Below are positions 5,685-46,556 of a stretch of 64,000 nt of DNA, in pieces. Position 1 is the stretch's first letter. Every line of letters begins with the position of its first letter. Source of the stretch: Rhizaria sp. SCN 62-66 (lineage: Eukaryota); assembly GCA_001724265.1 (NCBI GenBank), contig MEDY01000023.1:1-64000 (forward strand), given 5' to 3'. A program made the translations under genes and the position numbers. A model generated the notes under the pieces. That model did not search any database, was not told the origin of the DNA, and saw nothing but the letters and a program-made list of their open reading frames with translations.

Positions 5685-7556
5685 TTAGAGACCGAGCGAG
5701 CGGAGGAGGCTCTCCGACACAGTCGCGGACTCCTCAATCGCAGCAACAGCGTTTTTGTTGTTCTGCTCCTTGTAGTCCTGGCCGATCCACTGGCCGATGC
5801 GCTTGATGACGGTCAGGCGGTCCTGCGCGAGCGTGGAGGCCGTGTTGGTGCCCAGGATGGCGCAGTGAGAGGTGCGCGCGGTGACCATCGTCTCGCAGCC
5901 TTCCGCGATGGGCTCGACGCCGGGCAGCTTCGACAGCGCCTTCCAAGGATCAATACCACCATTAGTGAAGTATGTGTTAGATGCCGAAAAGACGAAGCCG
6001 CCGTAATGGTTGCGCGCGGTCTGCGCAGCGGCGAGCACGTACTTGCCGTTGTCGTCGGGCAGGCCGAAGACGTCAGCGCAGAGCTTGTAGAAGAGAGACG
6101 GGGACACCAGCTTGGCGTGGCCCAGGGCCTTGCCGGTAACCTATGGACGGCAAATAAAACGATATTAGAAACCGCAGGGAGATCAACAACAGCAGCAACA
6201 AAGTAGAGAAAAGCGCAAGAAAGCGAGGGATTGGTGAGAAAGTGAAGTGGAATGCGTCACGACAGTACAGAACAAAATGAGGGTGAAACCAATAAAAATA
6301 AGCAAAAAAATACAAATATTAACATGATCTAGCTCCAATTCCGTCAGCTCTGCGATGAAGACAAAAAGAATGCGTACCTGGTAGAAGCCGAACTCCGTGC
6401 AGGTCTGCCAGGTCCACTGGCGCATCATCCCATTGCCCCAGCGCGTGCTGTTCATACTGGCGACCATGTCGGCGTACGAGTGGTCGATGCACTTGGAGCC
6501 GCGCAGACGGAGCCACTCACGCATAGAGCTGGCGAGCCCGGCGTAGGGGCTCGCCTGGGTGGCAAGGTCCTTGCACAGCGTGACGATGTTCTGCGCCGCC
6601 GCGTCCTTGTGGTACTGGATGATATCAGCCACGCGGTCCGTCAGCGAGTAGAAGAAGGTCTCGCGCGCCAGCACGTCCGCGCGCGCGGGGCTGGTGCCCG
6701 AGGGCGGGGCCGTGCAGAGCAGGAAGTCGTCCGCCAGCGCCGCGGCGTCGCCGCCCTGCAGCTTCTGCTCAACCGTGACAAGCGCCTTGCGGATGTTCGA
6801 GACGCAGGTCGCGCCGCCGAACTCGGTCAGCGCGTCCTCGACGACCTCGTAGTACTGGTAGAACGCCACCTCGGGCTCCAGCGGCGCGCTCGAGGCGAGG
6901 GACGCGATGGCGATGTGCGGGTACTTGAGGCGGAACCAGGCCGACAGCGAGCCGCCATAGGAGCCGCCCCAGACGGTGATGGGGCCGTTCTTGCTGCGGT
7001 CCGTGTAGCCCATCGCGGTAAGGAAGGCGGCCAGGTCCGCGAGCGCCTGCTGGGACGACAGCAGACGCAGCGAGGCAGGCGAGAGGTCAGCCGTGGGCTT
7101 CGAGTCGCCGTAGAAGCGGTGCTCCAGCGCGACCATACGCGCGCTGTGCGCCTTGGCAGCGTCGTGCACGAGCCCGGACATGAGGTAGTTGGGCGACAGC
7201 GGGCCCTCAGAGCCGATATAGACGTGCACAGGCGGCGGCGACTCGGGGGACGAGGCGGCGGCGTAGGCGTCGTTCATGTAGTACTTCTGCTGCCACGTCG
7301 CCGTTGAGTCGTGCGCGAAATGGTCCGCGAGCTGCGTAAACCACAGCGCCTCGTTAGGCGCGATGTACGCGCCCGTGTGCGGGCAGGTGGAGCCGAGCTT
7401 GTTGGCCGTGAAGGACGCCAGAGTTTCGGCGGTCACGGTCGGGGGCGCGACCGTCTGCATCGGGGTCTGCTTGGTCCAGATGCCGGCCTCGGAAACCGAA
7501 GCCAGGCCCAGGAAGGCCGCGGCCGCAAGGGCAAGCACGGAGAGATTGAGACGCAT
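5685..7556 (-). CDS. Secreted/lysosomal serine peptidase, family S28 (PRSS16/PRCP-like), 2 exons
   Basis: Exons 7556-6378 and 6140-5685; ends TAA. Signal peptide MRLNLSVLALAAAAFLGLAS; motifs FTQLADHF, LEHRFYGDS, LSSQQALADLA, GGSYGG (Ser), RQWTWQTCTEFGFYQ, NGGIDPW (Asp), SHC (His). Confidence 0.92.
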
Positions 7557-8413
7557 CGTCGTGCTAGATACGCGCAGAAGCAAACACCACCAGGCAAAGA
7601 GTGTCGAAAGAAAAAATGGTGAGCGCAAGAGGAGCCAATAGGTTGCGGGTGTCGAGTTTGTGCAAGTCAATAAAAGAATTTGGCACAAAATTATTCAAGC
7701 AAAGTATACTTTTACAAACAAGCTATGTGTTTTGTGGTGCCAAAGTCGTTTTGACGCAAGAAACGTCGAGAATAAAGATGATAAACTGGTCGCACTCACG
7801 TCATCGCTTGGCGACGCGTCGGTCGGTTTGGGACCGCCAGGTTGAAAAAATATTAGTGGTGAGATAAATATTTAGGCTAATATGATGTTCCATTCAAATA
7901 ATAGGAGCTATAATTGGATAAACATAATCATTTAAACATGCGGATTATTTCACTAGGTGCACAATAGTGTTGACAATGAATTCACGAGGATATGTCTTGT
8001 TTTTACACTTTTTTGCGCATGATTGTTATGCCCATGCAACAAATGATTTTTTTACTCACACTCGAGCGTGATATTACTTAGTTTCGTCAACTCACTTTCA
8101 TACCACTCAAAGAACTTATTATATCACCATAAGAGCCAGTTTGTTTCCACAAGTCTTTGTCTTGGTGTGTTCACAACTCTTACACTTAGAAGTTACGGCT
8201 CGCCGACTTGCAATACACCCAATGATTTGATTCTATCTGCATGCACATAATTAAGGATGTATTAGATAATAATGATCACATAAAAAGTATCTTGTGTCGT
8301 TTCGCACAGACAAGACTGATTGGCCTTGCGTCACAGAGCGTCTCTGTCACTCGTTACGAAACGAAACACCCACGCATCATCACACAACAACGAACGACAA
8401 GCACACCCAGCCA

Positions 8414-8501
8414 GTCCGTCCGTCCGTCCGTCCGTCCGTCCGTCCGTCCGTCCGTCCGTCCGTCCGTCCGTCCATCCGTCCGTCCGTCCGTCTGTCCGTC
8501 T
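8414..8501. repeat. (GTCC)n tetranucleotide microsatellite, about 22 units, downstream of the rhomboid gene
   Basis: Near-perfect GTCC tandem array with a few ATCC/GTCT variants. Confidence 0.95.
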
Positions 8502-8549
8502 GCCTGTATCGCCAGTGCCGACTGCGAAGACTATCAGCCGCAGCGCCCT

Positions 8550-9971
8550 TCACCAGGGATAGTTGCGGCGCTTGCGCGCCATGGCCTCGTACTGGTACAC
8601 GGCAAGCCCGGACAGATAGCCGCCCAGATGCGCCATGTGGCCCAGCGGGGAGACGAAGAGCCCGGCCGCGGTGCCCGCGACGCCGCCCAGGTCGAACGCG
8701 GCCAGCACGGGCAGCAGCGTGCGCGCGCTCAGCGTGATAGCGAAGAAGAGGCTGAACTGCGTGTTGGGATACGTCAGGCACGTGTTGCTGATAAGAGCGC
8801 CCAGAGCGCCCGACGCGCCGAGCATGGGCGCCAGAAATGAGTACGCGGCCTCGGCGTTGCCGCGGCGCGAGAGCGCAAAGGCGAGCCCGGCGCCGCCGAA
8901 GACCTGCGCAAGCGAGGCAACGACGCCCGCGCCCAGCCACACGCCCATGAACTTGTTGAAGGACCACGTCTCGTCGTAGATGCGCCCGATTGACAGCAGC
9001 GCAATGGTGTTGAAGAGGAAATGGAGCCCTGACTGGTGCGAAAAGGCCGAGGTGACGAGCGTGTGCAGACGGCCCGCCATGACGTGGCTAAACGAGGTCA
9101 TGAAGTGCTCCGCCATGCGCTCCTGCAGCGCGGGCACGCGCCAGCAGAGGAAGACGACTGTATTAATAGCCGTGATGATGTGCGTCGTGCCCAGCCGGTA
9201 CGCGTTGCCGTTGAAGAGCAGGTAGTGCTTGCCGTGGTGCGTCACCAGCGAGAGTCCCAGCAGCGAGAAGAGCGACCGCGCGCCGCGCAGCTCGGGCAGC
9301 AGCGCCTCGTCCGCGCTCGACATCGTGTCCGGGGTCAGGAACAGACCGTAGCCCGCGGCGCCCAAGAGGGCGAAGCGCGCGCCCGTGGCAAAGTCGCGCG
9401 ACCAGGAGCCGCTGTTCTTGCCGCTGCCGTCCTGCTCCTGCTTGTTGCCACTGCTCTGCTCGTTTTTGCTATTGTTGTTGTTGTTGTTGTTGTTGTTGCT
9501 GTTGCTGTTGTTGTTGACAGTAGCGTCGGCGGCGGCCGTGACGCCGCGAATGAGGGCCACGGTCTGCGAGAGGGTAAGGCGGGGTGCGGCGGCGGCGCGG
9601 GCGGCCACCGTGGCCGGGGACAGCGACGCGATCGAGCGGGCGAACGCGGAGAACGACGTCGGAGCAGCAGCAGCATCAACAACAGCATCAGTCTCGGCGG
9701 CGTTGCTGCGAGTGTTAGTCGTGGCCATGCTGGAGCTCGAAGCAGCACGGAAAGGGCGGGCAAGCAGGGTGACAGGCGCATCGAGGAGAGAAGCCGCGCT
9801 GGAAGTCACCGCCGTCGCAGCAGAGACAGCAGCAGTGTGGCTGAGAGCGCTGCGGGCCTTGTTGCCAGCGACTCGGGCACTCGTGCTGGAGGTGAACAGA
9901 GTCGCGGCAGCGGTGGCTGACTTCAGGCCGCCCTTGGAGAGCATGAGTCGGGAGGACGCGCGGGAGAGCAT
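8550..9971 (-). CDS. PARL: Mitochondrial rhomboid protease (PARL/Pcp1-like), single exon
   Basis: ATG at 9971 begins an Arg/Ser/Ala-rich presequence (MLSRASSRLMLSK). Motifs TSAFSHQSGLHFLFN, LGASGA (catalytic Ser), GHMAHLGG (catalytic His); ends TGA. Confidence 0.88.
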   Translation of the reverse strand: MLSRASSRLMLSKGGLKSATAAATLFTSSTSARVAGNKARSALSHTAAVSAATAVTSSAASLLDAPVTLLARPFRAASSSSMATTNTRSNAAETDAVVDAAAAPTSFSAFARSIASLSPATVAARAAAAPRLTLSQTVALIRGVTAAADATVNNNSNSNNNNNNNNNSKNEQSSGNKQEQDGSGKNSGSWSRDFATGARFALLGAAGYGLFLTPDTMSSADEALLPELRGARSLFSLLGLSLVTHHGKHYLLFNGNAYRLGTTHIITAINTVVFLCWRVPALQERMAEHFMTSFSHVMAGRLHTLVTSAFSHQSGLHFLFNTIALLSIGRIYDETWSFNKFMGVWLGAGVVASLAQVFGGAGLAFALSRRGNAEAAYSFLAPMLGASGALGALISNTCLTYPNTQFSLFFAITLSARTLLPVLAAFDLGGVAGTAAGLFVSPLGHMAHLGGYLSGLAVYQYEAMARKRRNYPW

Positions 9972-10330
9972 GGAACGCGCTGTAAGAGAAGGGAAGAGCA
10001 CACAGAACGAAGAGCGAGGGTATGCCGAGAGATATGAAGTGGAAATGACGACGAGTGAGAGTTCGAGAAGTCAGAAAAGAGGCGGCGTTGGAGAAATAAA
10101 GGGACCCATACAGAATTCGATTTGAAACAAGAAAATGAAATAGCACGTTTAATCCTATCATTGCTATACATAAACTAAACAACGATGGGAACATGGTTTT
10201 CACGGAGTGAATAGAAGGCTGACCACAAGCTTGAGCTGCGATCGGCCGCGAAGGGCCCCAACAACCACGCTGAGTGATGACTTTGCGCCAAGACATAGAT
10301 CGCGCTGAACTCTCCGCGCCTCGCTCTGCA

Positions 10331-11299
10331 ATGTCGACTGGGTTAATTTTAGCGCTTGTCGCGCTTGTAGTTGTAATTATCGCGCTTGTCCTCTCGCGCT
10401 CGTCCTCCGCAGCCTCGTCTTCGTCTCGCCGCACCATCCTGCTGACAGGCGCCATGGGCAGCGGCAAGACGGCGCTGCTGCACGCCCTTGAGCGTGGCAT
10501 CTTCGCCAAGACCATCACCTCGACCGCGCCCAACACCCGCGCGTTTGTTCCCGCGGGCTTCGCGCCCTCTGCCGCTGCGGCCGCGAAGAACTGGCAGTTC
10601 GTCGACGTCCCGGGCCACGGCTCTTTCGGGCTCGCAGTCACGGCTGCGCTGCCCGAGACGCGCGCCGTCGTCTTTGCTGTCGACCGCACCGACGAGGCCT
10701 CCTGGCCGCTTGCCGCCGCGCGCATCTACGCGCTCTGCACGGCGCCCGCGCTCGCCAAGGCCGCCGTGCCCATCGTCATCTACGCAAGCAAGGTGCGTCT
10801 CATGACTAAACTTCATAATTCCGAATTTTCACACTAGTTCACCATAATCATCCTTTTTTGTCCCAAAATTCAAACATAATCAAGATAACACGATAATCTA
10901 ACTTAATCCATTCTATATTTCCTATGCTGCGTCTTTTCTGTTCCTCTGTAATCGCGACTCGCTCGACTCGACAACAAACAGTCGGACCTGTCGGTCTTCG
11001 CGCGCCCTCTGCCCGAGCTGCGCGCCGCCCTCGAGACGGAGCTGACGCGCCTGCGCCGCGTGCAGGCTGCCGCGGCCGCCGCGGGCCCGCAGCTCGAGGC
11101 GCTGGGCGGCGCCGCCGACGCCGACACGGTCCCGCTGGTCGACCCCAAAAAGACGCCCGCACGCGGCAGTAACGCCAAGGCGTCTGCGGGCGTTAGTCTG
11201 GACGATTTGTGGTGCCCCGTGACGCTGGTCGCGGGCTCGGCCGCCGATGGCACCGCGGCCTCGGTCGTGGCCGAGCTGGGCCGCATTGCGGTCGCGTGA
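10331..11299 (+). CDS. SRPRB: Signal recognition particle receptor beta subunit, 2 exons
   Basis: Exons 10331-10792 and 10982-11299. N-terminal TM anchor, P-loop GAMGSGKT, DVPGH, VVFAVD, ASK|SDL, LETELTRLR helix; ends TGA. Confidence 0.85.
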
Positions 11300-11951
11300 G
11301 TAACTTATTACACTGTACAAGTATGCCACTACGCTACGTCTTATTGATTGATACCGCCTGTCTCATAGATGATGTGTTGTGCAAACGTGTGGCTGTTTTT
11401 ATGCGATCTCTATGAGTGGGGCGCGTAGAAATTGATACCGCTGGCCTTGCTGGGGCCGTGGGCTTACAGTCACTGTTGCGATCAGAGACATCACGAGCGC
11501 CAGTACTCAAGGAGTTTCTTGTTTTGCGATTTTCTGTGTGTGATTGAATACATATGTGTTTATGAGTTCAGTTTTGGCTAGGTATAACATTCTTTCATAT
11601 CATATCGTAAAGGTAGCGGTGTGAAAAACGTTATATAGGTTCATGTATGTGATGTGCGAGTTTTTTTTGCATCTTGAAACATTAGCCACAGGATCGTTCA
11701 AATTTCTGACTCGAGCCTGCTTTGTTTTGATCGTCAAGAACAAATTTTAGACAAATTATAGATCTAACACTCGATTTTAACATTGATTTTCTTTTTATAT
11801 TTTCTCAAAGTGCTTTTTGTTCCGACTGTCAGAGAGTCTTCCGTTTCTATTCCTCCAGTCGTGATTTGCCCGACCAAACTCTCCACTCCCCGACGCGCAC
11901 TGCCTTTCTGTCGCTTTCTCGCGACACAGCGCCCGCGCGCGCGGCTTTGCA

Positions 11952-14900
11952 ATGAGCCAACGCAAGCACTCCTGGCGCGCGCGCCCCAGCGCCGCGGACC
12001 TGGCGGTGCTGGCGGCGGCCGCGGAGGCGCGCTTCATGGTCTCCCGCGAGCTGGGGCCCACGCGCTTTGAGCTGCGCCCTATCAACACGGCGGGCGCCTC
12101 GACGAATGCCAACAATGCACCGCTAAACAACGCCTCTTTATCTTTTAGCGATGCAAGTGCCGCTGCGATCAATGCTCAGCAGCAGCAACAGCAACACCAG
12201 CCACAACCTAAGCGTTTTGTTGTCTCTATTGGTGGAGACCTTACATGCTCTTGTCACAGCAACGCAGCAGCACCGAATTCGACAGCTCCGAGTAGTGGCT
12301 CTAATACCACCGCTAGCAGCAGCGCCGGCTCTAGCTCTCTATCATCTTCGTCATCATCTTCACAACAACAGCAACAGCAGCCACAGTCTCTGCTGTGCGT
12401 GCACGTCGTCTACGTGCTCACTCACCTGTTCCGCGTGCCCGCCGGCTCCCCGCTGCTGTGGCAGCTGAGCCTTGTGGACCGCGAGGTGGACGCAATGCTG
12501 CGGGACAGGGAGCGCCATGCGCGCGCGCAGGCACTCGCGCGCACACGCAACAACAATAGCAACAACAACAACAACGGCCGTGCGAGTGGGAACAGTTCAC
12601 ATGCTGCGAGTGCGGCTGCGACAGTCACAAATACTGAACAGTCTCAGTCAGCTGATGGCGGCGGCAACGGCGAGCAGCGGCCTAACTTCGACTCGGCGCG
12701 GCCTGACTTGGTGCAGCGGCGGCTCGACTTGTTGCCCAACGGGGTCACGATCAAGACGCTGCGGCCGCGCTGCCTGCCGCCCGCGCCCGCGCTGGTGCTG
12801 GTGCCCACGATTGCGGCCGCCAGGGCTTTGGGCGCCGCTCACGCGTACAATGCCGCCGCCTCTGCCGCCGCCGCTGCCGCCGCCGCTGCCGCCGCTGCTG
12901 CCGCCGCTGCCGCCGCTGCTGCTGGTGCGGACGCGAGTGCGAGCCCGGATGCAGGCGACGACGATGACGAACGTGAGCTTGAGCAACAGCAGCAATAGCA
13001 GCAACATCAGCAGCACGAGCAACAAGAGCGAGAGAAACAGAGGCAGCTGTATCTGCAACAGCAACAGCGGCGACAGCGACTGTTACGCGCCAGCAACAGC
13101 AACAATAACAGGTCTAGTAACAATTGGTCGACTCGGTCCGGGGGCGGCGCTCTCTCCGCTGTCGCTGCCGAGGCCGCCGCCGCCGCGCTGCCGGTGCTGC
13201 TGCCGCCGCCGCCGCCGCTGTCCGCGCCCCCGAGCGCGGCGTTGCTGCCGATCCCGATAACCGTGAGCACAGGCTACTGGGCTGACGAACTGCTGCTTAC
13301 GGTCACCCCGTTGCCGGCGCTGCCCACAGTCGCTGCGGCGCCTGCGCTCACGGTCACAGGCACGGCCACGGCTGCGGCGGCGAATGATGGCGGCGCCAGG
13401 GAGAGCGAGACGGTGCGCGTGCCAGTCACGGACTGCAACGTGCTCTGCCAGTGCGAGTGCGAGCGCGAGTGCGGGTGCCGACAGGGAAATCGAGCGCAGA
13501 GCAGGCTGGCGCTGCTTCAAGCGCAGTCGCAGCTGCTTTGGCGCACCGGATGGTCGCTCAGGGACCTGGACGCACATACGCAGCATCTCAAACGCGTTAG
13601 CAACGGGTTACAGTCACAAAAGGGGGCGAACAACACGATTACGCTTGAATTTCCAACAGCAGGCGCGCCAAGTGCTGCGGCAGCGCGTTCTTCTGTTACT
13701 GGCGCGATTGCCAACGCAAGGGTCGAGGTTGCCGCCCCGACTGCAGCCTCCGCCGTTGAGACGATCACAGGCGCGCTCCTCGAGCGTCTGCCGCCGCTGC
13801 CACCCTTTACTCCGCTTTGTGCTCCGGATAATAAGGACGCTGGCGGCGCCTCGACCGCAGAGTCGGCCGGTACCGAGGCTGACGCAGAGCCCGTGGAGAC
13901 GGAGGCCGAGAGTGTGGATTGCTGCATTTGCTACGAAGCAATGACTTACCAGGAAGAGGTACGCGTACCTAAACAACGTCGATGATCAGAATTTCAACTC
14001 GTTTTGTGCTTTTATCTTATTTTTTGGGTTATTTTATCAAATTTCTCACACTTTTACTTTTTCTTTGCTTTTTTCTTGCCTCTCTCGCGCATACTTCGCT
14101 GGCTTACACGCGGTCATACTCTCAGCTTGACGGCGCTCTCTATCCGTGTTGGTCCTCTTGCGGCAACTACTTCCACGCGCACTGCCTGCTCACCTGGGTG
14201 CGCCACAACACCAAGCCGCGCTCCACATACCCGCACAGCAACAGCAGCGGCAGCGGGAACGTGCGGGGCGCGGGAGTCACGTGTCCCCTGTGTCGCGCCG
14301 AGCTCGAGTGGGCCGTCGCGGAGGCACTCGCAGAGATGGGCCGCCGGACCGAGAAAATCCGGGCCGCGCGCGGGGACGCGGCTGCGCGTGCGCTGGCGCA
14401 GCGGCGGCGTGGGTTTTGGGCAGGTACTTACGCAAGTAAGGGGCTCAGCAGCAGCTGCGCCAACATTCGTGGAGATATGAAGGTGTATCAGCAGTATATG
14501 GCTGCGGCGGTCGCCAGGTATGCGCTGGGCGAGGCTGCGGGAAGGCTGCTGCGGGTGCAGACGAGGATTGCGAATTTGCAGTCACTGCAACAGAAGCAAC
14601 AGCAGCACCACCAGCCGCCGCAGTCATCACACGCGTTGTCGCCGTGGCAACAGAAGCGTCAGCAATAGCATGTGCTTCACTCGCTCTTGCAGCTGCAGCC
14701 GCGGCTGCAAGCGCAGCTAAAGCAACAGCAGCAGCGCCTGTTGTTGCAACTCAAGCACTTGCAGTCACAGTCTTCGCAGACGACGCTGCAAGCCGGTAGT
14801 TCGCTGTCTCCGAGTGGAGTCGTTGTGCTCGGCGCGCGCCGCGTACTCACGACGACTGTGGGCACCTACACGTTTCCGTTACAAGCAGCAGCGGCATTAG

Positions 14901-17900
14901 GCGAGCTGACACAAGAGCAAGAGCAAGAGCAAGAGCGTCTGTACGAGACTGGGCTCGGGTTAGTTTCCTGGCCGAGCGTAGCTTACTTGCGACCGCACAG
15001 CAAACAGCTTTCACTGGCACCGACAGCGCCCGAAACAAAAGAAAAGGCGAATGCCGTTGCAGCAAGAACACGCAAGTCCTCTCTGTTACTCGCGACCTCC
15101 AGCAACACGCGCAGTGGCAGTTCCGGTCTTAACCGTTCAACTGCAGCGACTTCACCGAGCTCTTCACAGTCGCAGTCTAAGTTGCAGTCTGAGGCGCTGT
15201 GGCGGCGGGGGCGGGGGCTAGGCTCTTTGCACGGCCGCTGCACCCTGTGCGGGGCCGGGGGGCCGCCGAAGCCCTTGCACGAGGTCGAAGGCAGCGCAAG
15301 TACAACTGATAACACCTCAACGCAGATAACCACAACAATATCTAGCAGCAGCTCTGGTCTGGGTTTAAGCACTATTGCGAACACACGGTCCATGTCTCAC
15401 GCTGTTGTCCCAGGCTCTATCTCTGGCTCCAGCGGCTCAAACCCAACTGCTTTGGTTGTCGGCTCGAACAATCACAGTCTATCTGGGAGCGTTGTTGGTG
15501 GCATCACAGGCTCGGGTGTTGGCAGTGGGAGCATCAGTCTTTTTGTGTCGCCAACAAGCAGCAACACGAACGCGCACGTCGGAAACATCTGTAACAACTT
15601 GGGTTTGTCATCACAGCAGCGGCAACAACGGTTGCAACGATAGCGGCTGCGGCAACCGCAACAGCAGCAACAACAGCCGCTAGCTTTAGAGAGCAGCACA
15701 TTCCTCACTGTCAGCTCACACATTAGCAGCAGCAGCGGCCTTACTGCGAGTGGCGCTAATCACGACACGAACTCCAGTGGTTCCCCTCCTGTTGCAGCTG
15801 CTCCTGCTGCCGTGCCGCTGGTGTCGTGCCTGCGGTGTGCATGGGTCTCACTGTGCCACCCTTGCGTCGCGATAGTACTCGATAGCAACAGCAAGGCTGA
15901 CAGTAGCTCAAGCACGGTTGATTCTGCGGCATGCAATGATGACGACAACGAGGCCTTTCCCCTAAAGGCTGCAGACGCGAACAGTCCCGCCCGCTTGCTC
16001 TCTCTTCTGTCCCCCTGCGCTCCGGTGTACTCGTCATCTTGCCTCAGTGACGGCGAGCAGGAAGGGACAAAGGCGCACGTGTGGGCCTACAGGCACGATA
16101 TGGAGCTTGAATCAACATCAATTCCTCAAAAAAGCCCTGAGGATAGTCTGAAACAGGTTAGTTTTAATGAGTCCCCAAGGAAAGCAGCGCTAGCATCTTT
16201 GTTTGCGTCAATGACAGCTTTTGTATCTCAGAACAATGACAACAAGCGCGATGCTGCAATCACAAAGCAACACAACAATAAGAGCGTGAATGTTCACTCT
16301 CGCTCTGTGTTGCACTAGCCCTTACAACCCCAATTGCCTTCACAGCTCCTGCGCCGCACCGCCGCCGGCCGCCGCGCCTTGCTTCTTGCGCTCAGGGCCG
16401 GACTTCACAGTGCGGGCCGTTCGCTGCACTCCCTGTGCGGCCTGCAGGGGCTGAGCACTCTCGCAGACCTAAGCACGACTGGTGACGGTGAGAGCGCCTC
16501 TGTGAGCGCGTTTAGCATGCTTGTGAGCCCAGGTCTTGTCACTCAACAACAGCAAGATATTAACTGCGACGGGAGCACAAAAAGCAGTGATTGTGAGCCG
16601 AATGACGTACATAACTCCGAATCAGATCTCGGAGCTGCTCTTGACCTTGGTTCTGATACTAACTCTGACTCAGACTGCACTCAGCAACAGAGCCAGCAGT
16701 CGCGGTTTGTCTTAAGCAAGCAGCGGCGCCAGCGGGAGCAGCAGGGGCCGCGGCGGGCGCAACAGCAGTCTCGGTCTGTGCAGCGGCAGCGGCGCGCACA
16801 AGAGCGGCGCAGGCGGCAGCGGCTGTGGCAACAGGGAGCTCGAATCGCGTTGCACTGGTCTGATGACGATCACACTGAAGACACAGCAACTTTGTGCAGC
16901 AAAACCGAAGGCGGTGAAAACAATGTTGAGTCAGCGTTGTTTCGCGAGCTTTCTGACGCTTCTCTTGTCCTCACGCTGCCGTTGCCGCGCGCTCTTTTCT
17001 CGTTATCTCTTGAACAAAGCAATTTCGCTATGCTCGAGCTCCAGCGCGCGGCAGGGCTGCTCTCTGTGGGACCGCGGGCGCTTGCCACGGCGGCGCTGAA
17101 GTCGCTGGCGCAAGGTCACTTGGAACAGAGTAGCGCGGTAGCCCACTCAGAACTACAGGAGGCTGCTCAAAGTCACACTGCTGATGACGCGTCTGACAAT
17201 ACATGCATATATAAGCGTAGCTGCGGTGGGAGCGAGTCCAAATACCTCCGTTTGTGGCGTGTCGCCCCCGCGCTGTCTCCGCTACTCACCCCATGGCTTG
17301 GCTCCCAAAGCTCTTAGTTGCAGTCGCCGTCACGGCTGCAATCGCAGTCTCATCTTATCCTGCGGGGACACCACGCCGACTCGACTGGTATCGGTAGTGG
17401 CGAGGTTACTAGCGAGAGCTTGGAGGGCAAAACTGCGGTTTGGGGAGGCTTTTGGCCCAAGAACGACAGCTCCTGGGATAAAGGCTCTGAGTTACTGCTA
17501 AAAACACACAATACTAATCTCGATGACGTACGTGCTCTTGACGCGTGTGTGTGTGGCTCTGACAGTGTTGGTGAGTGTAAATGCGAGTGTAAGAGTAGCC
17601 GTGAGCAGCAACGTGATTGTGACGGCGACTGGGGCGTTTCTACCACCGTCGCGCTTTGTGACAATCGTAATAGCAGCAACGATGACAACACGTCACAGCA
17701 GAAGCCTTTGCTGGTACTCACAGTGAGCATTCCGCTTGCACCCATTGCTGCTGCGCTTTGCACTGGCATTGATAGTATTGACGCGAATCTCAATGAAGAC
17801 AACAATGACGGTGATGCAGCGAGGGACAAGACGAACAACATGAATGATTCGGAAATTTGCGTTGATAATGAAACGTCGTCTGCTGCTGTACGAGCTATTG

Positions 17901-20900
17901 CGACAAGCCTCGGCAGCGCAGCACACCGCGTCACCCAGTCGTTGCTGCTCCTGGCGTCTCTGCTAAGGAGCGTTAACAGGCAAGACATCTCTTGCGACAA
18001 GGCGTTTGGCGAAGTTGGCACATTAGAGGCGAATCAAGGCAATACTGCTGGGCTGCAGTCTTTATCTTGTGTTGACGCGAGCGCGAACGCGGAGGTTGAC
18101 TCTAATGTTGGTACTGTAGCCAAAGCTGCTCACGACGCTGATTCTGATTCTGCATCTGTTGTTTTCACTACTTCTCAAACATTCGGAGCGGAAGCAACAG
18201 CAGCTTCAGTGCCAGCAACAATGCTCTCGAGCGACTCATGTTGCGCGTGCTGCGGTGGCAAAATCGACGCGTTGACCCGCACTCAGGCTGACGCTGACAC
18301 GGAGTCCGAGCCCAGTCGCCTCCATTGCCGCTTCCCGTGCGGCCACCGCGCGCACGTGGCCTGTGCTGCGCTTGCCGTGGTTACGAGCGGGGCCACACTG
18401 CGCTGTCCTCACCGGTCGCACCACTACCTGCTCCACAAAGACTCTCCTTACAACAGTCACAGCAAGCTGAGAAGCAGTGTCTCGAGCTTTAACGCGCTGC
18501 CGCTGACGTCACCGCTGTTGATCGCGCTTGCCTGTCTCGGCCCCGCCGCTGCGAAGACAGTGATTTCAGCACTGCGCTATCTTTTAGCGCCGCAGCGCCG
18601 CAAGGACGCAGTGAAAGCCGCCGCCGCAGCCGCCGCAAAGGCCATCCTGTACCTGCCCCACGCACCGCAGAACAACGACAGCGCCGCAAGTGACACTGCG
18701 AGCAGTGTAGTCACGGCTGCGGCGACTGCGGCCGCAGTCTCCGCTCTGGACCTGAGCCCCGCACTGCGCACGCGCCTTGCTGCCCTGGGCCCGGCGCTTG
18801 CTGCGCTGCTGCGCGCGCGCGCGGCGGCGACGGGCCTCGCCGAGCGCAGTTTCCTGCTCGCGCAGCCCTGGGTGTTTCCGGGGCTGGCGCTGCCGCCCGG
18901 CGCGCTGGCGCTGGCGGCGGCGCTGGCCGCGGCGCGGGGCGCGGGGGAAAGGGCCGCGGCAGCGTTGCAGCTGCGTGCGCTAGCTCCTGAGAATCAGCAG
19001 CAGCTACTGCGACAGAAACAGAAAGATGCTACAGGCACTGAGATGGTTGTATCTCTGACAGCTGTTGGTCACAGTAATGCGAACAGCAAGGCTCGTGTTG
19101 GCGGTAAGCTTATGCAGGGACGAGTTCAACAGCATCAACAACGACATGGGAAGTCACAGCCTCAAGATCAGCATTCTCCGACTGCTTCACTGTCGCTTTC
19201 ATCGACGCCTTTGCTAGGCGATAATGCAAGTAAACACAGTAAGATTCAGGAGTTGCAGACCCATTCATAGGCTAAAGTCAAGACAAGCCGTCACGGAAGT
19301 CACTCTGGTGCCTTGGATGCAAGTCCCTTTAGTGGTATACTTGACCTCACAGTGGGTGGGACGTCCACAACAGTAGTAGCAGCACCAGGGGCAGATACAT
19401 CAGCTGCAACTGCGGCTGTCAAAGCTGGTCGCTTGTCGAAGGGCCTTACAACCAAGGGCTTATCAAAGGGGATTGTAAACGAAACTACAGGTAATCTAAG
19501 CTCACTGGTTAGCACCGCACCATTAGCGACCAATCTAGCGGCTGTTGGCGTTGTCAGTGCAGCAAGCATGCTCACAGTCGCTCCGTCTGCCGTAATTTAT
19601 CCGAGCATCGACGCGATTATTGAAAACAACATCAACGTTGATAGTTATCATCGCCGCGCTGAAAACGAAACCGACACTGAGACTGAAGCTGCAACGCAAT
19701 ACTTACAGCAGCAACACGAGCAGCAACAGCAGCGACAGCAGCGGCTGCAGGAACAGCAGCAACAACAACACGCATTGCTAGAGCTGTCAAAAGCTGCGGT
19801 GACAGCATCTTTAGCAGAGGCGGAAACACCTCTCGTTATTACAGCTCGCAACATTGATACAAGTCAAAACAACGTTGACGCTGATGTTGATGCTGCTGCC
19901 TCTTCTGAACGGGCTGAACATGATCCTCTTCTGCTGTCTCGAGTGCTGGAAAGAGGATCGGAGAGTCAAACAGAGGGTGACTGCTGGGATGTGCACTCCT
20001 TGCTCCCATCGCGTTTACGCGACTTGTCTCGGCCGTCAACGGCGTTGCCAGCAGCATCAACAGCCGCAGTAGTGAGTGTGCGGGCTGATGTCGAGACTCT
20101 ACATGCTAATGATGCTGCTGACGCGGATCATATGAACGGAGATGACAATGACGCAGATGAAGATGGGGATGATGAGGACGGAAGCGATGAGATCGACGAG
20201 CTTGTGTCAGATTTCCTCTCATTTCAACACGATTTTTCTCTTGGCACGCTATCCTTTGACGCGGACTCTGCTGGCAGCAACGATAGTGATGGAATCAATG
20301 TTGACACCAACGTCTTTAACGCCATCACGACTGACGACGCGAAGAGCGACCCCAAATACCACGTTGGTCGTCTTTACGGGAGCATTGACGACGAGTGCGA
20401 GCTCGAACCAGTGTTTGAGCATGATCATGAGCGCGAGCGCGAGCGCGATGCCGAACACGGCGCCGAACAAGTTCACGAGCGAGAACCAGAGCTGGAGCCG
20501 GAGCCGATGCCAGAGCACGACCAGCAACAGCATGAGCAGGCGTCCGAGCCCCGTTCAGCGTTAGATCCAGAACGGGTTGAGACGGTGACTGTTGTAGCTG
20601 AAGCGGCAACAGAGATTGATGTTCACGCCGGGTTTGAGGCTGCGATTGCTTCTGGTGTCATTGGTGACGATGAGAACGATAATGTGCTTGTCAGCGCCGG
20701 TGCCCATGATATTGAGCATGAGAGCGATTGTGAGCTTGAGCTGTCGTTTGACGCACGCGCATTAGCAGAAGCGCTTACACAAAACAACCAGAGCAGCAGT
20801 ACCCGAGATGCAAATAATATCACAACGACCAATGACTCTAGCATCAGTACGATCAATAGTGTTTCCTTCAGCAGTTATGTTGATGATGCTCCTGCTAGTC

Positions 20901-21808
20901 TCCGAGCCACTAGTATTAGCAACACTGACCGAAATAGTCGCAACTCTAGTCAAAGTTACACTTCTTTTGCGAGCGCCAGTTCTATCGCGAGCCAGAACGT
21001 TCGCGGAGGCAAAGTTGCGAGGGGCCGGCCTGCTGGTCCTTCAGTTACCGCGACTGAGAGCGCTAGTTTTAGAGCTGCCCTATTCACGACTGTCACCCCA
21101 GGTATTGGCGCTATTTCTTGTGCCGCTGTGCCAGGAAAGCTTGCGACAATCAAGCGGGCTGAAAACAAGAGCGCTAGCGCGAATGCTACGGCTCCGAACA
21201 CCAACGATGGCGCAAGTCACATTCATAGTCACGGTTTCACTGCGGCGAGTGCTGCAATGACCGGCGTCAGTCTAACTGGCTCCGGAGTGACTAGCAGCAG
21301 GCATAGTGGCTCTAGTGCCGGCACTAACGCTGTCAACGGCTCAGGTGTGCGTCAGAGGGGCCGCGCTCCGCTGGGCTCTCTCAAAGGCGCGCCGCAACTT
21401 CAGGACTCGACTTCGTTGAGTTCACAGTTACAGTCACCGTCGCATTCACTGCCACATTTGCACTCGCAGCAACTGCAGCAGCAGCAGCAGCAGCAACACC
21501 AGCGTTTGCATTCACCTCTGCAACAGCAGCAGCAGCAGCGACAGCAACTGCAACAACAGCCACAACAACAACAGTCATTTCTCCAGTTTGAGTTACGTTC
21601 GCATTCACTTAGCTTGCAGCCAGGGCCAAACACTAGCACCGCTGTGCCCGCACAGTCGCAGCTGCCGTTACGGGGCTCACAGTCAGCTCCAGTGGACTCT
21701 CAATCACTCCTGCAGCTCCCTCCAGTCCGCGGCGTCAGCAGCAATGCAAGTAACAGCAGCAGCAACGTTAGCAGCAATTCTGGAAGCAGTCACAAATGGA
21801 GGAACTGA
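11952..21808 (+). CDS. ZSWIM2: ZSWIM2/MEX-like E3 ligase (SWIM-RING-ZZ-RING), ~3229 aa if six in-frame TAG codons are read as sense
   Basis: Exons 11952-13958 and 14126-21808; ends TGA. SWIM: RELGPTRFELR..FVVSIG..CSC..LCVHVVYVL..LLWQLSLVDREV. RING1: CCICYE|..CWSSCGNYFHAHCLLTW..CPLCR. Split ZZ-like: HGRCTLC ... CLRCAWVSLCHPC. RING2: CCACC..PCGHRAHVAC..RCP. The ORF-track pieces are in one frame per exon, separated only by TAG at 12996, 14666, 15641, 16316, 17315 and 19268. Confidence 0.85.
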
Positions 21809-22305
21809 TGGTTGATTCACACGCAGATGTGTATTTCTCTCTATAGGATACTCTTTAATTTTTTTATTTAAAACTACACGCATACTTACAACTTAGTCCT
21901 ATCACTTGATAGTCATTCTACTTAGCAATAAACACCTTGTTCTGCAAAGAAACACAACTGATTTGAGAGACCATGTGTTAAGTGTATTTCTACATTCTAC
22001 TATGTATTGTTTTTGGATTCTCAATCAGAGCAGCATTAGCAATAACAGCAGCAGTGACTGTTAGTAGCGACAGATCTTGCGGCATATTCTTTGCTCTGGA
22101 ATAGGAAGACAGGAACACAAAATTTCATCAATAATTATCATCACATGCACTGAAACAACAACAATTATATACTATTATATCTATATCTCGAGACAGGAAA
22201 GCAAGACTACTCACAAGAATATTCTCACTCCGCTTCGAGTTGCATTTGCCCACCCTCGAGAGGTCCAGAGAGGCTTGACTAGTAAGCTCAAGACGGCTTA
22301 GCGGC

Positions 22306-23253
22306 TTAAGCGTTGTCGGAAGCGTTGTAGGACCCGATGCCGGAGGTGTCGAGGCCGACGGTGGCGTCGTGCTGGTAGAGGAACTTCTGGTACTCGTCGT
22401 CGCTCAACCCGTCGCGGTTCACGCCGCCCAGGAAGACCAGAGGGAAGACCAGCGCAGTCACCAGCGCGGCTGAAGAGAAACGGAGAAGGAATTGGGACAA
22501 GAGCAGAGTAGAGGTCGGGAATGAGCGGTTTTCAGAATAAAAGCAGTGGATAAAGGGATAAAGTAAGGCAATGTCGATCCAATATGACCAAACAAAGTAT
22601 AATCAAAGCATTTGACCACAAGTGCAATCGAAGAGATGACACGTACACCAGCCGGCCTTGAAGAAGATGAAGCCCCACTTGCGCATGTAGCAGTGCTCGT
22701 CATCGGTGCCGGGCGGGTTGAACACGTGCATGGCGCCGCCCTCGCACTCGGCGTAGAAGATGAGCATGGTGACCGGGTAGATGATGGCGAGTGCGTAGAG
22801 AGCGTAAATGGCGCCGCGCAGAAAGACGTTGCGGATGGTGACGCCCAAATAGCGCAGCACGCGGCGGTATTCCTGCGTAGGGATCGGCAGCGTCTTGCCC
22901 TGCAGGATCGCCTTGCGCACGCCGCCAGTGGTCGCGATGGTGACGAAGAAGACGAGGAGGAAGGTGCTGATGCCCAGGTCAGCGACGATGGGCGCGTCGG
23001 CGTAGTACACGCGGTGCCCGTCAATCGTCACAAAGCTCTCAGAGCGCCAGAGACCCGTGCGGTCGTGCGAGAGGAACGACAGCGCGGTGATGCCGAAGTT
23101 GATAATCCAGTTGGAGATGGAGACGAAGATGATGCTGATGATAAAGTGCTTCGAGCTCATCGCCTGCGCAGGCGTCTGCGAAATCGCCGCGCCGCCGCGG
23201 GTAAACGGGTCCGTGTCCAGGTAGCTGGACGCGCGGTCTTGGTCGCTCAGCAT
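22306..23253 (-). CDS. Multi-pass membrane protein, possibly DUF2456-like, at least 2 exons
   Basis: Exons 23253-22647 and 22469-22306; ends TAA. About four hydrophobic segments; LW..PIVADLGISTF..VRKAILQGK and C..KWGFIFFK resemble DUF2456 from memory only. 5' end uncertain. Confidence 0.65.
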
Positions 23254-23992
23254 CTGACTGTAGAGACGCAGAGGGTCAAGGCAGGGCGCGCCGCGAGGTC
23301 AGTGACAAAAAAGTGACGATAGTGAGGGCAGGAGGGACGGACGGGATACAGCGCGTTAAAAAAAGATTTGCAAAGTGTTCTTAAAATATATTATGAAGAG
23401 AGAAGTATAGACTTCGGATACCAAGCTCCGGAGTTTAAGTGTCGGAGTTAGCGGGAGATACAGCAAGTGCTAGATAGGACTTGCCTCGTCGTTCGAAGGC
23501 CAGCCACTCGAAGAAGAAGAGGAAGAGTTGTATTATCAACTCGCCGGCAACTTCCGAGTGGCGACTCGACCTCGCAACTAGCTCGATTTTATCGAGCGAA
23601 TGCACGCTTTTCTCTCGCACAGTCGTCCTGAGGGTCAATGTATGGAATTTAGATGTTGTTTTGCTACTATATTTATTTCTGCAAATGTCATCAGGAACGT
23701 TTTCACGCCAGTGTCTATCATTTTCTCACAGCCTCGCTGCTCCTCTCTCTCGCGCCGGATCTCAGGTCTTTTCCCCCCTTTCTGCAGCCCAGTAGCTGGT
23801 TGATCCTTTTGCGTGCACGCATCCCGCAGTTTTATTAGTCTCTGTATTTAATTTGTGCTCGCTTTACTCTCGCGCCGTCTCGGTAGAGCTCTCGAGAGGA
23901 CAGCGCACCTACACACTTGCACCGCCCTCTTTGCTAAAGCAACACCACTCGCGCTCTTGCGTGTGTGCTTAGAAACACAGACAACCAGCACA

Positions 23993-24610
23993 ATGAGCGG
24001 CGTGCTTGACGATTCTTCAGGTAACTCCGCGTCCGAAATCGACATCCCCGACCATGATCACGACGACCACTTTTACGCGCATGTCTCGCAACAACAACAA
24101 CACAACAACGGCGGCGGCAGTCGCAACAGCCACGGCTACTACAACAGCGGCGGCAGCAGGAGCGCGGCCGTGAGCAACAGCGCCACAGCCAACGCCGGTC
24201 GCGGCGGCCGCGGCCCGTTCTCGGCCCCGGCCCCAACTGCTGCGACGGCGACGGCGACGGCTCGGAGCAGCAACGGCGCCGGTGTCCGCGGCGGCGCTGA
24301 CACTGGCACGGCCGCGGGGGCGGCGGGGACGGCGGGAGCGGCCGGCACGGCGGCGACGGGGACGGGCGCAGCCAGCTCTATCAACAAGAGCGCGAGTGGC
24401 ACCGCAAAACCGATCCCCGCGCCCGCCGCCGCCACCGCCGCTGGTGCCGCCGCCGGTGTCGCCGGCGCTGCTGCTGCTGGTGCTGCTGCTGCGGGCGCGA
24501 ACGGTGCTGGCGTCTCGGTTGGCGACAACGACGACGACAACGATGACGACAACTCGAATGGTCCGTCTCTCCCCTCTGCGCTCGCCGCTTGTCCCAGCCT
24601 GAGCCCAAGT

Positions 24611-24648
<38 letters not shown>

Positions 24649-25302
24649 TTGCGTTGTTGTTCGTTTGAGCGTGATCTTGCGACTGTATTGCATATCACAA
24701 CAATAATTCGATCACAATATTTATATCGACTCTTTTCTTACTCAATTTCCGACTTTCTCTCACTGTTTTCTCTCTTCTTTCCTTTCCCTTCGCTTCTTAG
24801 CGGATGACACGATCCAGTTCACGTATGACGCCGCGGCGTTCGAGGCGATCCAGCCCGACCCGGCCTTCGTAAACCCGGGCGAGGCCAACTGGCAACGTCT
24901 GCGCGCGCACTGGACCCGCAACTCGGACCCCAACGCGCAGGACCAGGTACGTTCACGTTCACGTCGCTCACAACAACAGATATAAACATATCGCTCACTT
25001 TGGAGAAACGCATCTTCTAACGACATGTTATTCTATTATCTATATCAAGATGCTTTTTATTTGATGAAACAAGCATCTTGTGTTTGAAATAATGACTCTT
25101 GCCCTTGCTTTTTCTCAATTTTCCGCTGCCTGTGATTTGTTTTTGTTTCTTCTCTGCGCAGGACGACGAGGACACGATCCACGACATCGACGTCGAGCAC
25201 GTCATGGTCTGTCTGCACCAGTACAAGCCTTTCCCGGCTCACGTCCCGCTCAACAGCATGATTGAGATCCTCTCCGTGCTCTGGGAGGAGGAGGGGTTCT
25301 AA
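23993..25302 (+). CDS. DUF4050 (Gag1-like clamp) family protein, 3 exons
   Basis: Exons 23993-24560, 24801-24946, 25162-25302. Motifs FVNPGEANWQRLRAHW and PFPAHVPLNSMIEILSVLWEEEGF, with TAA at the family-typical C-terminus. Confidence 0.8.
24609..24660. repeat. Intronic (TGT/TGC)n trinucleotide repeat
   Basis: tgttgctgttgctgttgctgctgttgc... inside intron 24561-24800. Confidence 0.8.
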
Positions 25303-25633
25303 TTAAGACAGGTACCGTACCAGGCGGTTCTAAACGATCGAATCGATACGGGGAACTTCTAAACAGTAGATCCGTAATGGAAATACGATATCAAACAAAA
25401 CTAGGATGATTTATAAGCAAAAAGGACTAACCACATGTATCGTGAGATAGAAAAGATACAGAAACATAACATGTATGATTACACTCGCTATACACTGGAG
25501 TAAAAATTTGTTGCTTTTGTATGAAAATGAATCACGGACTTCCGTACTTACTTACATTAAACATGAATAGGCACTTGGCTTTGGCCCGAGTCAATGAGTC
25601 AAACAGATAATACATGTACTTAACGAAATTATA

Positions 25634-25665
25634 AAACTAAACTAAACTAAGCTAAGCTAAACTGA
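25634..25665. repeat. Short (AAACT/AAGCT)n pentanucleotide repeat downstream of RagC/D
   Basis: aaactaaactaaactaagctaagctaaactga. Confidence 0.7.
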
Positions 25666-25721
25666 GCCGAGAGGCTCACCTACGACTCATACGTCGCACA
25701 CAGTGAGACACAGTACGTCTC

Positions 25722-27759
25722 TCAATTGTGCATGCGCGGCGGCGGCAGCCCCCCGCCGCCGCCGCCCTGCTGCTGGCCCTGCCCCGGCTGGCCCTGTTGG
25801 TACGACCCTGGACCCGGCAGCAGCGCCGCGCCGCCGACCGACCCCGCGCCCGCGCCTGCCGCCCCCGCCGCGCCTGCGGCCGCGGCGGCGGCAGCAGCAG
25901 CAGCGGCGGCGGCGGCAGCGGCAGCGGCGGCGGCGGGGGAGGCGACGCCCATAGCCAGGGGTGTGCTGTCGATCTTGGCCGCGCTGGCAGCGGCGTTTGC
26001 TGCATTGGCGCCGCTGTTAAAGGGGGAGCCCACGCCGACGCCGCCGTGTCCGTGGCCGATGAGGGGAGTGCCGACCGCGCTCCTGTTGCCCGCCGCGCCG
26101 CCGGCGCCGCTGGCGAGGGTGGGCCGGACAGCAGAGGGCGGCTGGATCAGTCCGGGCGGGGCGGGGTGGGAAGAGAAGACGGCGATCTTGAACAGCTTGC
26201 CGATGGCTTCCTTGAACTTGGCGAAGTTGTAGTCGATGAGCCCGGCCTTGGAGTGCGCCTTGCTAGCCATGATGGTCACCAGCGCCAAAGACGGGTTGAT
26301 GCGGCGCATCGAGAGCACGTAGCTGTTGGCCAGCGCGATCGTAGAGACCGAGTCGTCACAGTCCAGAGCGCCGCGCGCGCCGTAGATGCACGAGACGTCG
26401 AGGATCACGTCGATCATGTCCGCGCACAGCTCATACACCTGCGGGAATCATGGTGAGGGCAGAAAGAAAATCAAACAGAGAAGTTATTAGATAAGCATTG
26501 AATTTCGTTGAGATAATAGCAATTTAAGAACACACTTTTAGAGTGTGATCATGTGATCATAGGAGTAAAACAACACATGATGGACAAGCAATTTCTCAAA
26601 TAGTGCCGATATACGTCTTCAAATCTTGCGTCTGCGTACCTGGCTGTCCATGCGCGACGAGTCCGTCGAGAGGTAGAGCTTCGAGAGCACGTCAAACACG
26701 AAGACCTTGTCCATGACGCAGGACGACAGCAGCCCGTCGAGCAACTTCTCCATGAGCCCCAGCTGCGGGATGAGCTGCTGAACGACGCGTGACAGCGCCT
26801 CGAAGACGCTGTGATCGAAAATCGACGTCAGGTGGAACGTGATGCGCAGAGGCAGCTTGGCGAGCCGGAACTCCTCCAGGATGGTGCGCTTGATCTCGGC
26901 GTGAGAGTCGGAGCGGTGCTCGTCAGTGATGTACGAGTCCGAGTCGACCTTGTGCAGCAGCACCGTCAGCGACAGCGCGGGGTTCACCTACAGACAGATA
27001 GCAGACAGAGACAAAGCAGAGAGAAAGATGAGAGTGAGCGACATAATGTAAAGTATAGGTCGCATCAAAATGAACGGTTTTCAAAAGAAAACTAAAAAAA
27101 TAAGATGTGAAATAACACACAACATATACAAATAACAGTGATCTAACAAAGGAGCAAGTATTAGGAGCACTAGGAAGTGTTTTGTTGCGTCGTACCTGGT
27201 AGGCGGTGGAGGCGGTGTAGAGGAGGTACTCGACGGCGTCGGCAAAGCTCTCCTCGTCCTGCGAATCAATCACAAACACAAGTGCGCCGGCGCGGGAAAA
27301 GATGCGGTCGGCCGTGACCTTGGACTTCTTGTCGAAGAACTCGTAGTTGCCGGGGAAGTCGAGCAGCTGGAACTGGATGAGCGCCGAAGGTAACAGCGCG
27401 GGCGGCAGCGGCGGGTAGTCTGCCTTGCGCACCTCCGTCGTCGGCTCGATGAAGAGCGTTTCGTGCGGGGACATTTTGCTAAAGACGACCTTCTGGATGG
27501 AGGTCTTGCCGCTGCGGCGCGGGCCCATGAGGAAGATGCGCGGGCGTTGGTCCGACGTGTTGTTGAGCAGCGTCGCCAGGTCCTCGACGTACGAGTTCTG
27601 GTACGGGGGCTGGTCGAAGCTAGCCTACATCGGTGCGCGAAGAAACGAAGGTAGTATCATGGGGTAGAAAAGCTAAGTGAGTATCCTTCAGGCGCATTTA
27701 ATTTCGTTTCAGGCTTGCTAGCATGTGCTGTGGCGTAGGAGAAATGAGGGACGGACCAT
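25722..27759 (-). CDS. RRAGC: Rag GTPase RagC/D (Gtr2), ~498 aa, 4 coding exons
   Basis: Exons 27759-27757 (ATG only), 27624-27196, 26987-26640, 26438-25722; ends TGA. Motifs RIFLMGPRRSGKTSIQKVVFSKMSPHETLF, DFPG, HKVD, FHLTSIFDHSVFEALSRVVQ, YELCADMIDV, GLIDYNF. Confidence 0.93.

Positions 27760-28155: not shown

Positions 28156-35614
<7,459 letters not shown>

Positions 35615-45175: not shown

Positions 45176-45262
<87 letters not shown>

Positions 45263-46520: not shown

Positions 46521-46556
<36 letters not shown>

Follow-up and report, generated by a model that had tools for sequence, protein, structure and literature searches.

The stretch of DNA analysed here, referred to as the window, comprises the first 64,000 nucleotides of contig MEDY01000023.1 (assembly GCA_001724265.1, filed as Rhizaria sp. 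SCN 62-66). It carries, on the forward strand at 11952–21808, a giant gene whose spliced reading frame contains six TAG codons and, on the reverse strand, the genes for QTRT1 and VPS37, with one in-frame exonic TAG each. UAG is thus very probably a sense codon in three genes, one of which encodes a conserved housekeeping enzyme. For the genetic code as a whole we favour, with good confidence, a reading in which UAG is a rare sense codon and no longer a terminator, and in which UAA and UGA still stop, the window being nuclear DNA of a eukaryote that is uncultured, is GC-rich and has introns.

A giant gene with six in-frame TAG codons

Under the standard code the giant-gene region is a chain of eight open reading frames (ORFs), and translation from position 11952 with table 11 breaks into stops after about 690 residues. 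When TAG is read as glutamine the eight ORFs merge into two, which lie in different frames: 11865–13985 (706 codons, one TAG) and 13973–21808 (2611 codons, five TAG). The change of frame between them falls at a phase 0 intron of 167 nt (13959–14125, forward strand), which is T-rich, has a GC content of 0.38 and reads GTACGC...TCTCAG. Exon 1 (11952–13958, forward strand) provides 669 codons from the ATG, including the TAG at 12996, and ends before the GTACGC at 13959, while exon 2 (14126–21808, forward strand) provides 2560 codons and the TGA, with five TAG, no TAA and no internal TGA. The original prediction had described one continuous frame of about 3230 codons, free of TAA, TGA and frameshifts up to the terminal TGA. 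This description fits the spliced gene, which has 3229 sense codons and a TGA, but not the unspliced DNA, in which the intron splits the frame and the two ORFs are in different frames. The intron also interrupts a RING-like finger, with CCICYEAM... on its upstream side and ...YPCWSSCGNYFHAHC...CPLC on its downstream side.

All six TAG codons were found at the positions and in the contexts originally given, all on the forward strand. The first (12996–12998) lies within a CAG/CAA run (EQQQQ-TAG-QQHQQ), and is followed by those at 14666–14668 (QKRQQ-TAG-HVL), 15641–15643 (QRLQR-TAG-RLRQ), 16316–16318 (SVLH-TAG-PLQPQ), 17315–17317 (SQSS-TAG-LQSPS) and 19268–19270 (QTHS-TAG-AKVK). From its base composition the spliced frame would be expected to hold about 40 TAG, 30 TAA and 40 TGA; it holds 6, 0 and 0 (internal), and the other two frames of the gene hold 25, 14 and 30 and 43, 41 and 120, respectively. 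It is therefore TAA and TGA, and not TAG, that are kept out of the giant frame. The GC content within 45 nt of each of the six TAGs is 0.46–0.60, compared with 0.30–0.38 in the two introns that were read, which agrees with the earlier statement that none of them sits in an AT-rich, intron-like segment. For all eight exonic TAGs of the window the corresponding range is 0.46–0.73.

The TAGs are also present in other data sets. A contig from another assembly (L001) is identical to the window over 12871–15683, without a mismatch, and has the TAG at all three positions that it covers (12996, 14666 and 15641). Contigs from the runs X2, X3 and X4 jointly cover the TAGs at 14666, 15641, 16316, 17315 and 19268, with no listed variant at these five positions; the TAG at 14666 is covered by contigs of X2, X3 and X4, and the one at 16316 is spanned by an X4 contig (15661–18470). 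X2 and X3 have identical contig sizes, may be one data set filed twice and are counted once, and X4 comes from another study and year, the kind of run being unrecorded. Between the window and a strain that is about 0.2% diverged, none of the 19 single-nucleotide polymorphisms (SNPs) found in the giant gene (X4 and X6) creates a stop. Since both an independent assembly and a diverged strain have the TAGs, assembly error as their source is excluded. The sequence of the gene diverges between the strains and its 9.7-kb frame is still without TAA or TGA; what selection seems to preserve is the open frame and not the sequence.

Contigs of X6, a metatranscriptome labelled as poly(A), include one at 15513–15782 that retains the TAG at 15641; X6 may be DNA or pre-mRNA, and this contig is not used as evidence. 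Another X6 contig (13952–14225) keeps the giant-gene intron, and no intron joints are listed for the run. Over 8001–28000 its cover is low and nearly even in 29 of 30 bins, across genes, intron and intergenic DNA alike. Genomic DNA of this organism, or its unspliced RNA, is probably present in X6.

The identity first proposed for the giant gene, a ZSWIM2-like protein with SWIM, RING, ZZ and RING modules, was not borne out. At E ≤ 0.01 neither of its two ORFs matched any Pfam family, SWIM, ZZ and RING included, and at E ≤ 10 there were only weak matches of RING type at residues 60–86 of the second ORF (FANCL_C, 0.044; zf-ANAPC11, 5.3); the scan took the exons separately, so that the split RING was never scanned joined. 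A full HMMER search of 1.84 billion representative sequences with a 1200-residue query spanning the second to the fifth TAG matched five proteins. Four are ORF fragments of the same organism and the fifth, P0132, is a weak match to the RING region (E 5.3e-04); no match among these representatives aligns at the TAGs. The fragments, which are the public ORF predictions for this gene, correspond to query residues 1–180, 184–505, 563–730 and 798–1063 and end exactly at the TAGs, which lie at residues 181, 506, 731 and 1064. The placing of the TAGs between modules, one of them between the halves of a ZZ finger, likewise falls back on motif reading alone, since Pfam gives neither SWIM nor ZZ. A metagenome scan with the giant protein yielded one locus among 597 pattern matches, from the same organism at 100% identity, and no DNA of a relative. 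By these sequence comparisons the gene is classed as an orphan, and its predicted product as a RING protein of low complexity that is specific to the lineage. The gene is unusual for the window in its codon usage, the GC content at third codon positions (GC3) being 0.57 compared with about 0.8 in neighbouring genes.

QTRT1, VPS37 and the codons that end genes

The other in-frame TAGs in the long ORFs of the window are mostly 3′ splice sites and not codons. Two are exonic, one in QTRT1 and one in VPS37, and so the claim that these genes show the same feature as the giant gene stands. The QTRT1 TAG (40825–40827, reverse strand) falls inside a conserved N-terminal motif and precedes by 46 codons a stretch, ALRF..., that aligns in all of the proteins compared; from the TAG to this stretch, before the catalytic domain, the 46 codons contain no Met/ATG. 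The N-terminal extension and the first TGT-domain exon (40270–41175, reverse strand; Pfam TGT, 1.4e-55) were used as the query for relatives. In BLASTP alignments the query shares 75% identity with P0004 over residues 101–302 and 52% with P0006 over residues 69–301, both alignments passing the TAG (residue 117) without a gap; the one with P0004 has one gap of a single residue, well downstream. The motif S-x-T-A-x-H matches just upstream of the TAG and PSxH...PFS matches downstream of it, so that the coding sequence is conserved on either side of the in-frame UAG of QTRT1. The nucleotides that precede it, CCATCTC-TAG, resemble a 3′ splice site; the residues just upstream are, however, conserved in relatives and that stretch is therefore exon. 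Judged from the alignments, this two-sided homology is the strongest single indication that UAG is translated.

The N-terminal extension (40690–40860, reverse strand; S-x-T-A-x-H ... P-S-x-H ... F-x-P-F-S) is common to the window and three metagenomic relatives, P0004, P0005 and P0006, and the other QTRT1 homologues aligned do not have it. This motif is the marker of a clade of uncultured eukaryotes, in which the organism encoding P0006 is AT-rich. QTRT1 of the window also has a 45-codon in-frame insert that is absent from P0005.

In VPS37 (Mod_r) the TAG at 36248–36250 (reverse strand) is followed by 77 more codons and then by a TGA at 36014–36016. These codons have GC contents of 0.57, 0.71 and 0.84 at positions 1, 2 and 3, respectively, and a positive in-frame codon score, and the GC content drops to 0.49 only after the TGA. 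A word-indexed search with VPS37 returned only the window's own proteins, low-complexity words filling the 8000 candidates; the same search with the DUF2009 protein, its 8000 candidates filled in the same way, returned the window's own proteins and one match of 32% identity.

Fourteen gene ends were assigned in the window, most of them from the end of an ORF and a drop in GC content rather than from homology: nine are TGA, five are TAA (the S28 peptidase, 22-kb, ORC1-like, QTRT1 and CLC genes) and none is TAG. Two of these ends are backed by homology, that of DUF2009, where the Pfam match reaches the end of the profile, and that of QTRT1, where the alignment to P0005 comes near the C-terminus of the latter. 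The GC content falls to 0.33–0.54 within 150 nt downstream at 11 of the 13 stops that were measured and at none of the eight TAGs. Examples of TAA terminators are those of the CLC channel gene (54943–54945, forward strand), at which the GC content falls from 0.66 to 0.45 and the codon score from 0.78 before to −0.22 after, of the ORC1/Cdc6-like gene (35371–35373, forward strand; GC from 0.72 to 0.39) and of the S28 peptidase gene (5685–5687, reverse strand; GC from 0.62 to 0.40). GC stays high (0.69) past the TGA of the rhomboid gene, unlike at most other stops.

Across 5020 codons of other genes, taken from Pfam-supported or long exons, there are no TAG, TAA or TGA codons, and CAG and CAA number 179 and 15; in the giant gene the CAG:CAA:TAG count is 151:84:6, an enrichment of TAG over the 5020 codons elsewhere (Fisher p = 0.0036). 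The sole TAA that links two long ORFs, at 47215, lies in an in-frame CLC intron (47154–47267, forward strand; GTACGT...ATCAG, GC 0.30). A TGA at 22605 has coding-like flanks and falls in an apparent in-frame intron. A codon-score scan of stops with 40 open codons on each side gave positive scores on both flanks at 4 of 66 TAG, 1 of 46 TAA and 1 of 165 TGA, and separates the codons poorly, in that two of the four TAG positives are artefacts of antisense frames and the poor score of the giant gene makes its six TAGs fail. The open giant frame, the TAGs in a second assembly and strain, the ungapped QTRT1 homology and the lack of TAG at any of the 14 ends together sustain the claim that UAG is sense, as the five TAA and nine TGA ends and the lack of in-frame TAA and TGA in 3229 + 5020 codons sustain the claim that UAA and UGA remain stops. 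TAG behaves here as a rare, non-preferred sense codon.

The meaning of UAG and competing explanations

Based on sequence context, the amino acid encoded by UAG is probably glutamine. A neighbour-context classifier trained on the giant gene gave log-likelihood ratios of 21.1 for Q, 10.5 for H, 7.1 for R, 5.5 for L and −4.3 for S. When calibrated on sets of six true Q sites, it returned Q in 265 of 300 trials; the four calls that it made most often for true L or true S sets did not include Q. Three of the TAGs lie inside CAG/CAA runs, one transition away from CAG. A code with UAG as glutamine and with UAA and UGA as stops is of the NCBI table 15 type.

Several points weigh against this assignment or against UAG being a sense codon at all. 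The context test may merely mirror the mutational origin of TAG from CAG, and the one TAG of the eight that can be aligned to relatives, in QTRT1, faces S, S and D in a variable column and not Q. A search for tRNAs in the 64-kb window, Rfam included, found a single tRNA, Asn-GTT, and no suppressor tRNA, and no eRF1 gene lies within the window. Only eight exonic TAGs occur in the 64 kb, six of them in one orphan gene with codon scores below zero in frame (−0.04 to −0.49 per codon). Its product is weakly constrained: the 19 SNPs between the strains (X4 and X6 against the window) comprise 13 non-synonymous and 6 synonymous changes, with 9 of the 19 at codon position 2, and there is therefore little protein-level constraint on the gene. 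The sample of gene ends is small, and the TAA that ends QTRT1 is followed by a TGA two codons later. Finally, were the six giant-gene stops random nonsense hits, each would be a TAG with a probability of 0.48–0.53, such that six out of six has P = 0.012–0.021, which is small and not negligible.

Some of these points bear on whether UAG is sense with a meaning other than glutamine, namely Ser or Leu, or Glu, Lys, Tyr or Trp by way of a near-cognate tRNA. We regard this as unlikely, albeit the most serious of the competing explanations. The S, S and D opposite the sole alignable TAG would fit it, as would three Ser-rich contexts (SQSS-TAG-L, QTHS-TAG-A and RM-TAG-SSSS), and the best named QTRT1 matches include the Rhizaria Euglypha, Paulinella and Bigelowiella, a rhizarian with UAG as Leu being described in PMC5304391. 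The classifier, however, places Q well above both L and S and does not have Q among its four most frequent calls for true L or S sets, three TAGs stand within CAG/CAA runs, and the column with S, S and D is variable; moreover, in that rhizarian, exLh, UAG is abundant as Leu, with 384 occurrences in 71 genes (PMC5304391), whereas it is rare here. It is considerably less probable that UAA and UAG both encode glutamine (NCBI table 6 type) with UGA as the sole terminator, UAA being rare because the genome is GC-rich. Most known reassignments do shift UAA and UAG together (PMC5304391), the tandem TAA and TGA of QTRT1 would suit such a code, and with a CAA:CAG ratio of 84:151 in the giant gene the finding of no TAA beside six TAG has a probability of about 0.07, too high to settle the matter. 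Against it, no exonic in-frame TAA was found in 3229 + 5020 codons, the lone TAA that joins ORFs lies within a GTACGT..CAG intron with a GC content of 0.30, and GC drops after all five of the genes that end at TAA, the codon score also turning negative at the end of CLC.

A dual meaning of UAG, with termination in some genes and read-through by a suppressor or near-cognate tRNA in others, is improbable too. It would accord with the great rarity of in-frame TAG and its concentration in a weakly constrained gene, the VPS37 TAG could be a true but leaky stop with a C-terminal extension, and ciliates and Blastocrithidia are on record as having ambiguous codes. Yet TAG ends none of the 14 genes, and the QTRT1 TAG is upstream of the entire catalytic domain, so that efficient decoding is needed; likewise, six serial read-throughs in one mRNA would leave almost no full-length product unless decoding were efficient. 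Least probable, and very much so, is that the standard code applies and that the giant ORF is a decaying pseudogene, or that its TAGs are removed as tiny in-frame introns or by U-to-C editing. In its favour are the want of any giant-gene homologue other than the weak RING match to P0132, the poor codon score and near-neutral SNP pattern of the gene, and the likeness of CCATCTC-TAG in QTRT1 to a 3′ splice site. Decay is difficult to reconcile with the low probability (about 0.01–0.02) that six random stops would all be TAG and with 9.7 kb free of TAA, TGA and frameshifts, as a pseudogene with six nonsense hits should carry many indels too, and micro-introns are difficult to reconcile with the exon-like GC content of the TAG flanks (0.46–0.73 against 0.30–0.38 in introns). 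The conserved residues upstream of the QTRT1 TAG, i.e. exon, and the absence of TAG from gene ends also argue against the standard code. Protists are not known to carry out systematic U-to-C editing of nuclear transcripts.

Under the favoured reading of UAG as a rare sense codon, a tRNA with the anticodon CUA would decode UAG, and eRF1 would no longer recognise it. TAG codons may arise by C>T from CAG in Gln-rich runs and persist as if synonymous. UAG would be avoided in strongly codon-biased genes (0 TAG in 5020 codons, GC3 about 0.8) and would build up in an orphan gene that evolves fast and has little codon bias (6 in 3229 codons). More tentatively, an undescribed eukaryotic lineage may have captured UAG independently of ciliates, fornicates and exLh, and the window might be a snapshot of an early stage of codon capture. 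The lineage would then be one known only from wastewater and bioreactor metagenomes, with at least three related species sharing the QTRT1 N-terminal extension, and UAG would be gone from gene ends, absent from the 5020 codons of biased genes and gained mainly by CAG>TAG drift in an orphan gene.

The organism, the rest of the window and known reassignments of UAG

Three studies account for the runs with at least 84% of the words of the locus, which are labelled as metagenomes of bioreactors or wastewater or, in the case of X4, have no organism label; X1 is possibly the source. Among named organisms the best QTRT1 matches, at 60–69% identity, are from Euglypha, a transcriptome labelled Amoeba proteus, Paulinella, Epipyxis and Bigelowiella, which is only a hint at Rhizaria. 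In a QTRT1 tree the first-exon piece of the window's sequence entered in a wrong frame, which makes its branch length of 2.84 an artefact; by its second exon alone the window joins P0005 and P0004, the taxon sampling being too thin to place the clade. The nearest ESM Atlas clusters of the S28 exon are from Perkinsozoa, Streptophyta and Haptophyta and give no signal for placement, and a PDB search with the C-terminal S28 exon gave no matches.

The window holds about 15 genes, which include, besides the giant gene, QTRT1 and VPS37, those for tRNA-Asn, DUF2009, an S28 peptidase, a rhomboid, a membrane protein near 22–23 kb, a Gtr1/Rag GTPase, an ORC1/Cdc6-like protein, an Rpc31-like protein, a CLC channel and GLE1, and two unnamed genes. 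Both of the 5′ splice sites that were read start with GTACG (GTACGC and GTACGT), and the introns are T-rich with GC contents of 0.30–0.38. Several introns are in frame, poor in stops and read through as ORF (in QTRT1, within 38926–40095, reverse strand; in CLC, 47154–47267, forward strand; and at about 22450–22610, reverse strand), and the intron of the 22-kb membrane-protein gene contains a TGA. The CLC gene (44971–54945, forward strand) has an uninterrupted low-complexity exon of about 1300 codons at 47268–51219, rich in Ala, Gly, Ser and His with HGHGH runs. This exon sits inside the channel domain, between positions 75 and 113 of the Voltage_CLC profile, and has a coding-like codon score of 0.23 per codon. 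Upstream of the first in-frame Met of CLC there is a run of about 40 Gln codons (45180–45290, forward strand), which may belong either to a 5′ untranslated region or to an N-terminal exon, and a TAG at 45073 is found further upstream. A tandem peptide-like repeat (PSVRPSVRPSVR...) can be read on the forward strand at 8380–8510, in the frame antisense to the rhomboid gene and immediately downstream of it.

A literature search, supplements left out, returned no description of this organism or of UAG reassignment in a wastewater eukaryote. A UAG-only sense codon is a rare but already known kind of code change, of which this organism is very probably a further case. In Iotanema spirale (Fornicata) UAG is Gln and UAA is the primary terminator (PMC5304391). 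As here, UAG is decoupled from UAA and UAA and UGA terminate (PMC5304391), and UAG is a minority codon in both, at about 8% of Gln codons in Iotanema (PMC5304391) and 6 of 241 (2.5%) in the giant gene if it is Gln. Iotanema is, however, an anaerobic flagellate whose code was established from transcriptome data by way of many conserved Gln columns (PMC5304391), as opposed to the eight sites found here in a eukaryote with a GC content of about 0.6. If UAG is Gln, the code variant is the same as in two phyllopharyngean ciliate lineages and Protocruzia tuzeti, in which UAG went to Gln and UAA was kept as a stop (PMC11687900). In exLh, a rhizarian of the Sainouroidea, UAG is Leu, abundant and found opposite conserved Leu, and UAA and UGA are stops (PMC5304391); the reassignment of UAG alone and its scarcity in highly expressed genes (PMC5304391) are shared with the present case, whereas the context here favours Gln over Leu (21.1 compared with 5.5) and UAG is rare. 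UAG is Ser in Scotinosphaera (PMC11687900), and both UAA and UAG (UAR) are Gln in Amoeboaphelidium protococcarum, hexamitin diplomonads, oxymonads and ulvophytes (cited in PMC5304391 and PMC11687900).

The present case resembles the UAR-to-Gln lineages in being a probable change from stop to Gln in an apparently non-ciliate eukaryote and differs from them in that UAA is not reassigned, there being no exonic TAA and five TAA ends. The GC content of the window (0.52–0.71) and its introns of 114–167 nt with GTACG 5′ ends do not look like those of ciliate genomes.

UAG and UAA almost always change meaning together, and this apparently non-ciliate case would add an independent data point. It would bear on the way in which release-factor specificity and suppressor tRNAs separate UAG from UAA, and the low frequency of UAG would be informative about the onset of reassignments. 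With a gene caller set to the standard code, the proteins of this organism are truncated at TAG, as is evident from the four fragments in the public predictions for the giant gene, and eukaryotic bins from wastewater with this code will be mis-annotated.

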